DNA of 5,746 nucleotides from a virus (lineage: Duplodnaviria > Heunggongvirae > Uroviricota > Caudoviricetes), in IMG/VR virus record IMGVR_UViG_2671180814_000012; one strand, written 5' to 3'. How positions within the stretch are numbered: the stretch's first letter is position 1; every line of letters begins with the position of its first letter. Made by a program: the position numbers and the translations under genes. Shown here one piece after another: positions 36 through 5,584 of the stretch. The notes under the pieces were generated by a model, which was given only the letters and a program-made list of their open reading frames with translations, was not told where the DNA came from and searched no databases.

Positions 36-323
36 TCACAGTACCGCCTCCTGAAAATCACCCTGATAGAAAGCCGGTACACGCTGTCGTTTGCGGGCGT
101 TTTGCCAGTCCTTACGAGCCTGTTCAGACGGGAATAACCCGTAGCCAGAGTTGTATACATCCCCACTGGCAACCAGCTCTCTGGCGAGAACGCTTATTAA
201 ATATCTTGTCGCCCCGGTTTTAGCTTCCAGTTGTCGTAACGTCTCGCGCCCACTCTGGCGTACGAGTTCAACAACCTGCCCCTTAATTTTTTCCCGCTCT
301 TCCTGTGTAAATACTTTTGCCAT
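36..323 (-). CDS. Hypothetical phage protein, about 95 aa, last gene of the minus-strand replication operon in this window
   Basis: Frame open from TTG at 338, but the first ATG (323) follows a G-rich stretch (GGGGG) and gives MAKVFTQEEREKIKGQ... The upstream gene's stop lies at 339-341, so the two are tightly packed. No motif I can name. Confidence 0.45.
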   Translation of the reverse strand: MAKVFTQEEREKIKGQVVELVRQSGRETLRQLEAKTGATRYLISVLARELVASGDVYNSGYGLFPSEQARKDWQNARKRQRVPAFYQGDFQEAVL

Positions 324-2974: not shown

Positions 2975-3400
2975 TCAATGTACTGCCACAGCATTTCCTG
3001 CCGGGCCACCACGGTTCATCTGATTGAAACCGGCGATTGCCACTGCGACAAAATCATCAGCGTCTCTCACCAGTCGTTCATGCGTCTCCACCAGTTCCCG
3101 AAAATAAGCTGAACTGTGGCTGCGCATTCGAGCCACCAGCGGAGGTGGCATTGCCCTTTCGATCGCAGGTAACAACGCCTGAATTTTTTCAACAGCGTCA
3201 GGGGTGTCTTTATCCAGCCAACGGAAAATCTTTTGGGTGTTGAGATAAAGCGTGTTGTGCTTGCTGTCGTTATGCAGAACCGGAAACGTCATTCCCAGTT
3301 CGAAATAAACCCTGGTTATTTCAGCTGCCGGAACTTTTTCACCGTCCGGATGCGCCCAGGCTTTCATCGCCATGCGGATGTGTTCATGCTTGATTTTCAT
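2975..3400 (-). CDS. ydaT: CII-position regulator, YdaT-like (proposed functional analogue of lambda CII in Rac/CP-933P-type prophages)
   Basis: 141 aa starting MKIKHEHI.... ATG at 3400 preceded by GGGGGTGA. Its start overlaps the stop of the upstream Cro-like gene (ATGA at 3397-3400). Position between cro-like and O-like genes. Family name is from recall of Rac YdaT (about 140 aa), not from a search. Confidence 0.6.
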   Translation of the reverse strand: MKIKHEHIRMAMKAWAHPDGEKVPAAEITRVYFELGMTFPVLHNDSKHNTLYLNTQKIFRWLDKDTPDAVEKIQALLPAIERAMPPPLVARMRSHSSAYFRELVETHERLVRDADDFVAVAIAGFNQMNRGGPAGNAVAVH

Positions 3401-3660
3401 GAATCACCCCCCGCCGATGGTTGTGTGTTAGCCTGAAACTCAGCAGGCAAGCCGTCAGTTGGGTTGGGGTAGGTTTTACTGTCAATCTCATGTGGGGTCA
3501 CCACCCATCCCGTTGCTTCACACCAACGTAATATTTTTTCTCCTGTAAGTTTTGCACGCCCCGTTATAACGTGGCTGACCATCCCTTGGGATGCGCCAAC
3601 AATCTCAGCAAATGAACTCTGGGTTATATGAAAATGATGCAAATATTCTCCAAGATTCAT
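3397..3660 (-). CDS. ydaS: Cro-like HTH transcriptional regulator (YdaS/Cro-CI family), first gene of the early-right-equivalent operon
   Basis: About 87 aa from ATG at 3660 (MNLGEYLHHF...), preceded by AGGGCGG; the track ORF extends to a TTG at 3687. Candidate HTH segment SFAEIVGASQGMVSHVITGRAKLTGEKILR. Divergent from the repressor gene across an operator-containing intergenic region. Confidence 0.65.
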   Translation of the reverse strand: MNLGEYLHHFHITQSSFAEIVGASQGMVSHVITGRAKLTGEKILRWCEATGWVVTPHEIDSKTYPNPTDGLPAEFQANTQPSAGGDS

Positions 3661-3696: not shown

Positions 3697-3759
3697 AATA
3701 GCACTGTTATTTTTAAAAGTAAATAGTGATGCTATTTCAAAGTGATTAGCAATCTTATT
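3697..3759. promoter_or_regulatory. OR-like operator region: three 15-bp dyad-symmetric sites between the divergent repressor and cro-like genes (expected to overlap PR/PRM-type promoters)
   Basis: Sites at 3697-3711 (aatagcactgttatt), 3722-3736 (aatagtgatgctatt, near-perfect palindrome) and 3745-3759 (attagcaatcttatt, weakest). Centre-to-centre spacing is 25 and 23 bp. Half-site consensus AATAGY / GCTATT. A candidate minus-strand -35 TTGAAA sits at 3740-3735 with a poor -10; promoter hexamers are not confidently assignable. Confidence 0.6.
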
Positions 3760-3771
3760 AGAATTGGATGT

Positions 3772-4272
3772 ATGAAAAGAAAATCATTGTCAGACACCGA
3801 CCTCAACGCCGCCAGAAGACTGAAAGAAATCTGGATGGCAAAGAAATCTCAGTTGGGATTGACTCAGGAACGTGCGGCGGAAATTATGGGGTTTTCAACA
3901 CAAGGGGCGGTAAGTCACTACCTAAATGGTCAAACCCCACTAAACCTTGAGGCTGTTCTAAAGTTTGCTGGCTTACTGAAAGTTCCCCCTGAGTCAATCA
4001 GGCCAGACATGGTAGATTTGCTGCAAATTGCAAGGATGTATTGTCGAGAACCACAGCAAGATAACATAGTCGCATTACCAGCAGACACAGAACAAACAGA
4101 GGATGAACTACCGTTTGCCGTAGAGCCGATGGAACGAGATTTAATCCATACGTTCAGAGCTTTTCCGAAAGAAGATCAAGAACACATGCTTCAGGAGATG
4201 AAAGATAAAAAAGAATCAATGGATCGTACGGTTGCGCGGTGGTTAGCTGCACAAAAAGGCCGTCGCGCCTAA
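3772..4272 (+). CDS. paaR2: Prophage repressor with a lambda CI-like N-terminal HTH domain and a short acidic C-terminal region lacking a LexA/S24 peptidase domain (RacR/PaaR2-like)
   Basis: From ATG 3772 (MKRKSLSDTDLNAARRLKEIWMAKKSQLGLTQERAAEIMGFSTQGAVSHYLNGQ...), 166 aa. This aligns by eye with the lambda CI N-terminus (...[41 protein letters not shown]...). The track ORF starts at GTG 3742, which would run through operator site 3. No Ala-Gly cleavage site or Ser/Lys dyad context is recognisable. Symbol is recall-based and tentative. Confidence 0.75.
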   Translation: MKRKSLSDTDLNAARRLKEIWMAKKSQLGLTQERAAEIMGFSTQGAVSHYLNGQTPLNLEAVLKFAGLLKVPPESIRPDMVDLLQIARMYCREPQQDNIVALPADTEQTEDELPFAVEPMERDLIHTFRAFPKEDQEHMLQEMKDKKESMDRTVARWLAAQKGRRA

Positions 4273-4291
4273 ATCAGAGGAGATATGTAAA

Positions 4292-4486
4292 ATGAGTACA
4301 GTCCTTTCCCCAATGGTTTCAGAATTTGAGACAGTTGAGCAAGAAAATAGTTACAACGAATGGCTGCGGGCCAAAGTAGCAGCAAGCCTCGCGGATCCCC
4401 GCCCGGCGATTCCGCATGATGAGGTAATGGCGGAAATGGAACAAATTATTGCCCAAATTGCTGCTGCAACTCACAGAGGTGAATAA
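4292..4486 (+). CDS. paaA2: Small type II antitoxin partnered with ParE (PaaA-like, ParE-associated antitoxin)
   Basis: 64 aa (MSTVLSPMVSEFETVEQENSYNEWLRAKVAASLADPRPAIPHDEVMAEMEQIIAQ...). AGGAG 8 nt upstream of the ATG. Its stop overlaps the toxin start (TAATG at 4483-4488). Size and partner match my recollection of the roughly 63-aa PaaA2 antitoxin of E. coli O157; unverified. Confidence 0.65.
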   Translation: MSTVLSPMVSEFETVEQENSYNEWLRAKVAASLADPRPAIPHDEVMAEMEQIIAQIAAATHRGE

Positions 4487-4776
4487 TGTTACCCGTTTTA
4501 TGGCTACCATCTGCTCGTGATGATTTGCGCCAGATCGTAGCCTACATAGCTAAAGAAAATCCCGCGGCAGCACGCAGAATGAAAATTCGAATTGAAACAT
4601 CCGTTTTGCCGCTCACAGAGCATCCTTACCTGTATCCTCCAAGCGAGCGAGTTCTTGGTCTTCGTGAAATTGTAACTCATCCTAACTACATCATCCTTTA
4701 CCGAGTAACAGCATCAAGCATAGAAGTAGTAAATATTGTGCATTCTCGAAGACAGTATCCAGGCAAAAACAGTTAA
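4486..4776 (+). CDS. parE2: ParE/RelE-superfamily toxin (ParE-family type II toxin)
   Basis: 96 aa. ParE-like pattern: N-terminal LPVLWLPSARDDLRQIVAYIAKENPAAARR and C-terminal YRVTASSIEVVNIVHSRRQYP (ParE consensus ...I.I.RVLH.R.D-like). Overlaps the upstream antitoxin by one base. Followed by an intrinsic terminator. Confidence 0.8.
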   Translation: MLPVLWLPSARDDLRQIVAYIAKENPAAARRMKIRIETSVLPLTEHPYLYPPSERVLGLREIVTHPNYIILYRVTASSIEVVNIVHSRRQYPGKNS

Positions 4777-4792
4777 TTATTCCCGCCGACAG

Positions 4793-4818
4793 AACCACCT
4801 TAGGGTGGTTTTTTCTTG
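4793..4818 (+). terminator. Rho-independent terminator closing the repressor-antitoxin-toxin operon
   Basis: Stem aaccacc (4793-4799) pairs with ggtggtt (4804-4810), loop ttag, followed by tttttctt (4811-4818), 17 nt after the parE stop. Confidence 0.7.
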
Positions 4819-4832
4819 CCCCAACAAAAAAC

Positions 4833-4875
4833 AATAGCGATGCTATTTACATCAAAAAAATAATGATGCTATTGT
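4833..4875 (+). promoter_or_regulatory. OL-like operator pair carrying the same dyad motif as the OR region, overlapping a candidate PL-type promoter reading rightward
   Basis: aatagcgatgctatt at 4833-4847 is a perfect 6-3-6 palindrome; aataatgatgctatt at 4859-4873; spacing 26 bp. Candidate -35 TTTACA (4846-4851) and -10 TATTGT (4870-4875) with an 18-bp spacer, both overlapped by the operators. Confidence 0.55.
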
Positions 4876-5054
4876 TTCAGGCGTCAACCCACCCCGCCCC
4901 ACAGAATGCAGGGCAATACTTCGAGTTACCAGACAGTGGTCAGGGGTTAAGTAGCCAGCCCGAGGCGTAAGAACATGACGGCAGGGTTCAATCTTTAACT
5001 ATGCAGCAGGTTTTTTGTTCCGCCACCCCGGCGTTAAGGGGAAATGAGGTCAGC

Positions 5055-5207
5055 ATGGATACTATCGATCTTGGCAACAACGAATCTCTGGTGTGCGGCG
5101 TGTTCCCTAACCAGGATGGAACGTTTACCGCCATGACGTATACCAAAAGCAAAACGTTTAAAACCGAATCTGGCGCGCGTTGCTGGTTAGCCAGAAACAC
5201 TGACTGA
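5055..5207 (+). CDS. Small hypothetical early-left protein, about 50 aa
   Basis: ATG at 5055 preceded by GAGG 5 nt upstream (MDTIDLGNNESLVCGVFPNQDGTFTAMTYTKSKTFKTESGARCWLARNTD). The track ORF begins earlier at 5001 without a convincing RBS. Stop overlaps the next ORF's ATG (TGATG at 5205-5209). Confidence 0.4.
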   Translation: MDTIDLGNNESLVCGVFPNQDGTFTAMTYTKSKTFKTESGARCWLARNTD

Positions 5208-5584
5208 TGAGGCTGACGATGGAATTTAAAGATTTACCGTCTGATGTACAGAAAACAGCAGCTCATACATTGCATTCTGTGCTGCGAGAAATCGGGAAAG
5301 ATATTGCAAGCGAGCCAGCAAAAGATCTGGCCCGGAAAATCAAGACCGCTTTCGTTGAGCTTTATAATGTTGGCACTGACTCTGAAACTGTCGAGACCAA
5401 GACCGTAAGTTCACCAATATTCTCACTTGAGCCAAGCGTATTATCAGGTGAAATATGCACCGAGATTTCCAGCGAACTGCTTCCGGTAATACGAGAAGCA
5501 ATTCGCCGTCGCGGTTTGGATGGAAGTTATGATCATGACGTTCTGCAAGTTCTCAGGACAATGGTGACTTCACTGGGGATTTGA
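5207..5584 (+). CDS. Hypothetical early-left protein, 121-125 aa
   Basis: Start either at 5207 (coupled to the upstream stop) or at 5219 (MEFKDLPSDVQK..., GAGG 8 nt upstream). Amino-acid composition looks protein-like; no recognisable motif. Confidence 0.5.
   Translation: MRLTMEFKDLPSDVQKTAAHTLHSVLREIGKDIASEPAKDLARKIKTAFVELYNVGTDSETVETKTVSSPIFSLEPSVLSGEICTEISSELLPVIREAIRRRGLDGSYDHDVLQVLRTMVTSLGI

Follow-up and report, generated by a model that had tools for sequence, protein, structure and literature searches.

A probable prophage immunity repressor with a lambda-CI-type head and a PaaR/DicA-type tail in place of the S24 self-cleavage domain

Main finding

The protein considered here is encoded at positions 3772-4272 (plus strand; 166 amino acids and a stop codon by open reading frame (ORF) call) of the viral record IMGVR_UViG_2671180814_000012, whose whole stretch of 5,746 nucleotides we refer to as the window. 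Gene calls, Pfam and PHROG identify the window as the immunity and replication part of a lambdoid prophage belonging to the Rac/CP-933 type, and we consider it probable that the protein is the immunity repressor of this prophage, a functional analogue of lambda CI in which a lambda-CI-type head is joined to a PaaR/DicA-type tail that replaces the S24 domain. The non-cleavable class of repressors is already in the literature, as is what it means for induction, and the new element is an uncharacterised pairing of head and tail within this known class. On its own the finding changes little, as lambdoid repressors without an autocleavage domain have been known since 2011 from Gifsy and DicA, and PaaR2 was characterised in 2021. 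It gives the paaR-paaA-parE cassettes a third immunity specificity, of lambda-CI type, places the joint at which the immunity cassette recombined precisely where the tail begins, draws attention to the tail as a conserved domain that has neither a Pfam family nor a solved structure, and implies for annotation that such proteins are not to be named "LexA family" nor presumed to be SOS-inducible.

Absence of a self-cleavage domain

The initial annotation had claimed that the protein lacks the Ala-Gly cleavage site and the catalytic Ser/Lys typical of S24 repressors, and had concluded that induction does not proceed by direct RecA-stimulated self-cleavage. No match to the Peptidase_S24 profile of Pfam (PF00717) was obtained at E <= 1, whether the query was the whole protein, the C-terminal 76 residues alone or each of 50 family members. 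When the profile of the tail was compared using hhalign with the full-length, S24-bearing CI of a Shiga toxin (Stx) phage, the probability was 0.05%. The repressor contains one Ala-Gly pair (residues 66-67), located within the DNA-binding domain, and no Cys-Gly. The Pfam search, the hhalign comparison and the position of the Ala-Gly pair agree that cleavage site and dyad are missing; since the repressor has neither a catalytic domain nor a cleavage site, RecA should be unable to inactivate it directly. Judged by its sequence, the repressor lies outside the LexA/lambda CI family of self-cleaving repressors and shares with it the lambda-CI-type head only.

One apparent sign of S24 homology beyond the head was rejected. 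A BLASTP alignment with lambda CI (an approximate query) reaches residue 158 at 31% identity, but it is gapped past residue ~90, where the identities are scattered and add no score over the match to the head. A comparable extension past the head in a tblastn comparison with lambda was likewise dismissed as evidence for S24. The absence of S24, together with the homology of the tail to PaaR2, PaaR1 and DicA, supports the conclusion that direct self-cleavage is not the route of induction. The accompanying suggestion, that an antirepressor or another route is needed or that the prophage is cryptic and cannot be induced, is supported by the DicA-type tail and by the fact that the element in Shigella sonnei is a remnant interrupted by the insertion sequence IS1.

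The lambda-CI-type head

The ORF starts at ATG 3772; the identical ORF is annotated by the NCBI pipeline in Escherichia coli and S. sonnei, and all full-length homologues begin MKRK. The DNA-binding domain at the N-terminus comprises residues 1-91 (3772-4044, plus strand), is of the lambda-CI type and carries a basic N-terminal arm, MKRKSL. In a phmmer search of the PDB, residues 2-81 matched 1lmb, the N-terminal domain of the lambda repressor (E 2.9e-9), and Pfam placed an HTH_3 match at residues 27-74 (E 8e-9). In an AlphaFold2 model of the repressor, made from an alignment of 50 relatives, residues 8-91 form a confident helical domain with a predicted local distance difference test score (pLDDT) > 80, and Foldseek superposes this modelled head on structures of the lambda CI N-terminal domain with target-normalised template modelling (TM) scores of 0.85-0.93, a root-mean-square deviation (rmsd) of 1-2 A and 37-40% identity. 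The resemblance of the first roughly 90 residues to the lambda CI N-terminal domain, noticed by eye in the initial annotation, is thus borne out by phmmer, Foldseek and Pfam. Use of the whole model in Foldseek returned matches to helix-turn-helix (HTH) domains only, and a match to the Rep-Ant complex 5d50 was, with its rmsd of 19 A, meaningless.

In isolated phages, the head is closest to CI proteins of Stx phages that are full-length members of the LexA family; the CI of Stx phage Lys12581Vzw, which bears S24, is 52% identical to it over residues 2-90 (E 4e-30). The similarity ends at residue 90, and the protein continues for 76 residues after this position, in keeping with the earlier estimate of about 75. 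Glu34 and Asp38 form the positive-control patch of lambda CI. The residues aligned with these two positions, read by eye from the 1lmb alignment, are both Glu in the repressor, and the pair may act as a positive-control patch here.

The conserved tail

The C-terminal part had been described as a short acidic tail. Acidity holds for residues 91-122 (9 Asp/Glu versus 2 Lys/Arg) and not for residues 123-166 (8 Asp/Glu versus 10 Lys/Arg), and the last ~48 residues are not merely an acidic stretch but a conserved, predicted-helical domain. We divide the region into an acidic variable linker and a C-terminal tail module. The linker (residues 92-118; 4045-4125, plus strand) is predicted to be disordered, with a pLDDT < 50 at residues 92-112, and has the highest nonsynonymous divergence (dN) of the three segments of the protein, 0.218. 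The tail module (residues 119-166; 4126-4269, plus strand) is modelled with a pLDDT of 80-91 as a helix at residues 119-129, a Phe-Pro turn and a 33-residue helix at residues 133-165, along which the conserved residues L140, M143, K147, M150, V154, W157 and Q161, in the alignment read by eye, form a 3-4 heptad stripe. The family alignment gives the conserved pattern ...AFPEEDQ...KKESM...ARWLAAQKxRRA, and the ratio of nonsynonymous to synonymous divergence (dN/dS) of the tail against the homologue from strain O145:H28 is 0.14, which indicates purifying selection. The extreme C-terminus, AAQKGRRA (residues 159-166, 4246-4269), is nearly invariant, with A160, Q161, K162 and A166 at least 90% conserved.

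The relatives of the tail are small repressors of related prophages. The PaaR2 sequence used for comparison was obtained from primers listed in PMC8630535 (Table S3) and from a viral contig with the start MQKKE reported there. BLASTP aligned the last 44 residues of the repressor with the PaaR2 C-terminus at 52% identity (E 4e-15), and the tail aligned with PaaR1 of the Sakai strain (ECs_1069) at 56% identity over 64 aligned residues (E 6e-23). The NCBIfam DicA model NF007257 matches residues 106-162 (E 7e-8), which is below its whole-protein cut-off because the tail alone matches, and a tail-only profile aligned in hhalign with DicA residues 78-130 at a probability of 96.8% (E 2.6e-10), the tail identity to DicA being 29%. 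The hhalign match to GtgR of Gifsy-2 is weak (probability 35%, E 4e-4, 30 columns); DicA and GtgR align with each other at E 4e-12. RacR was tried as a relative and rejected, as neither BLASTP nor hhalign gave any similarity. A phmmer search with the tail alone against 1.8 billion representative proteins returned 11 clusters, two of them apparently of low complexity. The tail matches no Pfam family, no PDB chain matched the DicA tail, and the PDB structures of PaaR2 (7nkv, 8c3k, 8c3l) cover its N-terminal domain only.

One tail is thus found on at least four HTH heads: the lambda-CI-like head of the present repressor (166 amino acids), a GtgR-like head (PaaR1 type, 132-133 amino acids), the PaaR2-type head (123 amino acids) and the P22-C2-like head of DicA. 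By analogy with the PaaR and DicA proteins, the tail is presumably an oligomerisation domain. Relatives of 244 amino acids (P0013-P0023; loci L062-L064, with the gene at L062 4001-4735) carry a lambda-CI-like and a PaaR1/GtgR-like HTH in tandem followed by the tail, and a two-headed prophage repressor of this kind is unusual. Among 50,697 phage records, the sole tblastn match to a tail query (E <= 0.01) was in phage Evi (LR597642.1), where a PaaR2-type regulator with paaA (locus L065, 19764-20347) places such an immunity region in an isolated, virion-forming phage.

These observations bear on the idea that the protein is a decayed, truncated S24-bearing CI whose tail is meaningless read-through. 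That the host element is a degraded prophage, and that the nearest isolated-phage relatives of the head are full-length LexA-family CI proteins, would fit such decay. A read-through product, however, would not retain 52-56% identity to PaaR1 and PaaR2, remain recognisable in DicA, be joined to at least four HTH architectures, be under purifying selection and predicted with high confidence, or be present in the virion-forming phage Evi, and the start of paaA only 20 bp past the stop codon leaves no space for S24 remnants. We regard decay as effectively refuted and grant it next to no probability.

The joint between head and tail is also visible in the DNA. The DNA of the PaaR1, PaaR2 and Salmonella loci ceases to be homologous to that of the window within cro (~3471-3511) and matches it again from 4133-4145, precisely at the beginning of the tail. 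From these break and resumption points it follows that the immunity cassette consists of the 5' part of cro, the right operator (OR) region and the head with its linker, while the tail belongs to the conserved flank.

Operators, promoters and proposed mechanism

The 15-bp motif AATAG-N5-CTATT occurs at four sites with at most one mismatch, against 0.08 expected by chance; a motif with the spacing N6 gave chance-level matches only, and N5 is the correct spacing. Three OR-like sites lie between the repressor and the divergent cro-like gene, with centre-to-centre spacings of 25 and 23 bp. The OR1-like operator AATAGCACTGTTATT (3697-3711) overlaps the spacer and extended -10 element of the presumed rightward promoter (PR), for which the best candidate found by eye is the weak TTTACT-17-TATTAA with an upstream TG. 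The OR2-like operator AATAGTGATGCTATT (3722-3736) matches the motif exactly and abuts the -35 element of a promoter like that for repressor maintenance (PRM) in lambda, TTCAAA-17-TAGAAT (3736-3764, plus strand; consensus and relaxed scans), in a geometry that appears to resemble that of lambda OR2 and PRM. The weaker OR3-like operator (3745-3759), which on the minus strand differs from AATANNNNTGCTATT at one position, lies between the -35 and -10 elements of the PRM-like promoter. Transcription from this promoter would start on the A of ATG 3772 and yield a leaderless mRNA, an arrangement that has been demonstrated for paaR2 and lambda cI (PMC8630535).

The operon of repressor, paaA and parE ends at a terminator-like hairpin with a U tract (4791-4817, plus strand; 9-bp stem, -15.1 kcal/mol, z -3.1). 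Beyond it lies a region resembling the left operator and promoter (OL/PL) of lambda (4833-4875, plus strand), with operator copies at 4833-4847 and 4859-4873. These two distal operators overlap a PL-like promoter, TTTACA-18-TATTGT (4846-4875), that reads towards ydfA; an analogous PL933P/OL is present in CP-933P (PMC8630535). At the junction of cro and ydaT, an inverted repeat resembling a YdaT box, TTGATTTTCATGAATCAC (3390-3407), has one mismatch to TTGATTN6AATCAA. Because the count of this motif in the window is not above chance at the 3-mismatch setting, the repeat is backed by its position, which corresponds to that of the operator OM at the cro/ydaT junction of CP-933P (PMC9986795).

Taken together, these features suggest a mechanism in which the head would bind the AATAG-N5-CTATT operators, three at OR and two at OL ~1.1 kb away, and the tail, by homology to PaaR2, would most likely provide dimerisation and an octamer-type assembly leading to cooperative binding and looping between OR and OL. 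Binding at OR would turn off the operon of cro, ydaT and the replication genes and drive the repressor's own leaderless transcript, which carries paaA and parE, and binding at OL would turn off the operon on the ydfA-dicB side. Switching would occur via a bistable Cro/YdaT circuit or a trans-acting antirepressor and not via RecA. In the S. sonnei remnant, the repressor would keep the early genes of the prophage silent, and addiction to ParE and PaaA would prevent loss of the region.

Several points weigh against this mechanism. The head is not homologous to that of PaaR2, since BLASTP aligns the tails only, for PaaR2 as for PaaR1, and in phmmer searches against the PDB the repressor fails to retrieve 7nkv, which PaaR2 does retrieve. 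The scan for PR gave no minus-strand site at its threshold of 9/12 matches. We infer the DNA binding, oligomeric state and stability of the repressor itself, and the operators and activation geometry are our own reading of the DNA for a head unlike that of PaaR2. The literature that we read does not document the tail as the driver of PaaR2 octamerisation, and the PDB structures of PaaR2 are of its N-terminal domain. Finally, the searches for antirepressors and LexA boxes were confined to the fetched loci.

Comparison with known repressors

The closest known system is PaaR2 of CP-933P (Sp12) in E. coli O157:H7, the regulator of paaR2-paaA2-parE2 (Jurenas et al. 2021). PaaR2 is an octameric CI analogue without a peptidase motif that does not react to mitomycin C; it represses ydaS-ydaT, is leaderless and protects the entire intergenic region, within a switch that is bistable and linked to an addictive toxin-antitoxin pair (PMC8630535). 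Like PaaR2, the present repressor lacks S24, is divergent from a cro-like gene and ydaT, lies directly upstream of paaA-parE, and has a leaderless-compatible promoter and a second set of operators and promoter 3' of the toxin-antitoxin pair. Unlike it, the repressor has 166 amino acids versus 123 and a longer acidic linker, its putative operators are AATAG-N5-CTATT whereas those of PaaR2 are repeats with the consensus GTTTAGTAA, and its Cro partner is unrelated to that of PaaR2. PaaR1 (Sakai ECs_1069, Sp4, the CP-933M counterpart) has the same tail, the same paaA-parE cargo and homologous flanking DNA, but it is a protein of 133 amino acids with a GtgR-like HTH, and its DNA homology to the window is broken between ~3471 and 4145. 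On present sequence evidence, then, the repressor has the position and the tail of a PaaR protein and lacks homology to PaaR at its N-terminus.

DicA of the Qin prophage in E. coli K-12 is likewise a small, non-cleavable lambdoid repressor whose C-terminal half aligns with the tail, and ydfA (DUF1391) lies downstream in both. It differs in its P22 C2-type head, the absence of toxin-antitoxin cargo and its known antirepressor, Rem (Ragunathan and Vanderpool 2023; PMC10448788); the present repressor appears to combine a DicA-type tail with no identifiable antirepressor in the fetched loci. The GtgR, GfoR and GfhR repressors of Gifsy phages are ~136-residue HTH proteins that have no cleavage motif and stay uncleaved during induction (PMC3121763), and their motif LLxxFxxLPExE recurs in the tail, in its first helix and turn. 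In most E. coli genomes, Lemire et al. (2011) noted repressors of ~150 amino acids that have no cleavage motif, and gave DicA and RacR by name (PMC3121763). With lambda CI and the CI of Stx phages, the repressor shares the fold and sequence of the head (37-52% identity), the basic N-terminal arm and the set of three OR operators plus OL, but it lacks their S24 domain, Ala-Gly linker site and Ser/Lys dyad.

Routes of induction

The likeness to DicA and the Gifsy repressors raises an alternative in which DNA damage would act on the non-cleavable repressor through a small LexA-controlled antirepressor, possibly one that binds the tail. The homology of the tail to DicA, which is relieved by the antirepressor Rem (PMC10448788), points in this direction, as do the weak GtgR profile match (35%), the DicA-GtgR alignment and the grouping by Lemire et al. 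(2011) of DicA with GfoR and GtgR, whose antirepressors act in trans between prophages (PMC3121763). However, the LexA-boxed dinI-antirepressor operon of the Gifsy phages is absent from the PaaR-type loci examined. A LexA-box scan that recovered its positive controls, the dinI box of Gifsy-2 and the sulA box, was negative for the window, a related prophage of 25 kb (L001), 45 PaaR2 loci, Sp4 and phage Evi, and CTGT-N8-ACAG has 0 occurrences in the window. When Rem and a candidate GftA ORF were compared by tblastn with 70 fetched loci, the window, the S. sonnei loci and L001 gave no match, and these three also contain no DinI homologue. PaaR2, moreover, is unresponsive to mitomycin C (PMC8630535). 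We hold such SOS control to be improbable overall, and a Gifsy-type route in cis is unlikely; an antirepressor encoded elsewhere in the genome may act in trans.

A PaaR2-type viral contig (L037) encodes a DinI homologue (11869-12081) that is 39% identical to the DinI of Gifsy-2 and lies ~4.8 kb from paaR2, and no LexA box scored in that locus. The hypothetical gene at the rem position of L001 (6849-7127) was set aside, as it has no similarity to Rem. In S. sonnei 53G, the PL side of the remnant has, flanked by two IS1 copies, a gene (L050 13191-13979) for a 262-residue protein with Phage_pRha and Phage_ASH domains; proteins of this type are frequently annotated as antirepressors.

The tail itself offers another, tentative and rather unlikely, explanation. 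It could be a portable module that replaces S24 on at least four unrelated heads and that, besides oligomerising, senses RecA-independent induction through its C-terminus AAQKGRRA, which might be a protease degron or a docking surface for trans-acting antirepressors. The degron reading draws on a resemblance of AAQKGRRA to the basic C-terminal class of ClpX recognition signals (MuA, YbaQ). If true, a tail acting as degron or antirepressor dock would explain switching across a whole class of enterobacterial prophages.

Downstream cargo and the toxin-antitoxin pair

Our repressor heads a three-component paaR-paaA-parE toxin-antitoxin cassette. The antitoxin gene paaA (4292-4486, plus strand; PF21217 PaaA2, E 3e-23) and the toxin gene parE (4486-4776, plus strand; PF05016, E 1.8e-17) are co-oriented with it, with a gap of about 19-20 bp between repressor and paaA and an overlap of 1 bp between paaA and parE. 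PaaA is 75% identical to PaaA2 and ParE is 67% identical to ParE2, and the order ydaT-cro-repressor-paaA-parE is common to the window, CP-933P and Sp4.

It could be argued that the tail docks PaaA-ParE, so that the toxin-antitoxin pair tunes repression in a three-component conditional co-repression. The tail does accompany paaA-parE in the window, Sp4, CP-933P and the E. coli locus L054, and Hallez and colleagues reportedly found in 2010 that PaaR2 and the PaaA2-ParE2 complex are both needed for full repression. The association is not obligatory, however, as tail-bearing repressors also occur with other cargo or with none, and we consider docking very unlikely. The tail is followed in Salmonella by an unassigned gene for 112-120 amino acids, in the 244-residue forms by HipA_2 and DUF3037, and in the case of DicA directly by ydfA. 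The slot just 3' of tail-bearing repressors (window 4273-4800; L058 4403-5200; L062 4736-6400; L067 8343-8508) thus holds variable cargo (paaA-parE, the 112-120-residue gene, HipA_2 with DUF3037, or none) and corresponds to the position of rexAB in lambda.

The window and its host element

The window is 99.98% identical to S. sonnei chromosomes (e.g. strain 53G), save for a 138-bp deletion near its left end. The missing 138 bp fall at window positions 86-90, inside the DUF977 gene, and are present in six of six S. sonnei reference loci; the loss leaves a DUF977 ORF of 100 amino acids (36-338) versus 140. The DUF977 and DUF1627 genes at the left end of the window are both truncated. They are followed on the minus strand by genes for a DnaC-like ATPase (1086-1832) and an O-like replication protein (1839-2909), by ydaT, a functional analogue of cII (2975-3400; PF06254, E 5e-9; phrog_163, E 3e-40), and by a cro-like HTH gene in the position of ydaS (3397-3660; phrog_35, E 1.5e-16; HTH_3), which is divergent from the repressor. 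The YdaT of the window is 77% identical to that of CP-933P. The cro-like product (87 amino acids), also called in S. sonnei and E. coli, has no similarity to the YdaS of CP-933P, and its gene is specific to the present immunity type. Downstream of parE lie a ydfA-like gene (DUF1391, 5001-5207) and an ORF of 125 amino acids (5207-5584; phrog_33007, E 5e-80), which has no match in Pfam or NCBIfam; this ORF is kept after ydfA in S. sonnei, where IS1 cuts the region off downstream.

The S. sonnei element is a ~10-kb remnant that IS1 has broken up. The 20-kb S. sonnei loci that were fetched contain no genes for integrase, lysis or virions, and there is nothing left in the element to induce. The remnant is adjoined by a type II restriction-modification pair (L048 2590-5501), consisting of a BsuBI/PstI-like endonuclease and an N6_Mtase/Eco57I methylase, that is split or frameshifted in some S. 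sonnei strains.

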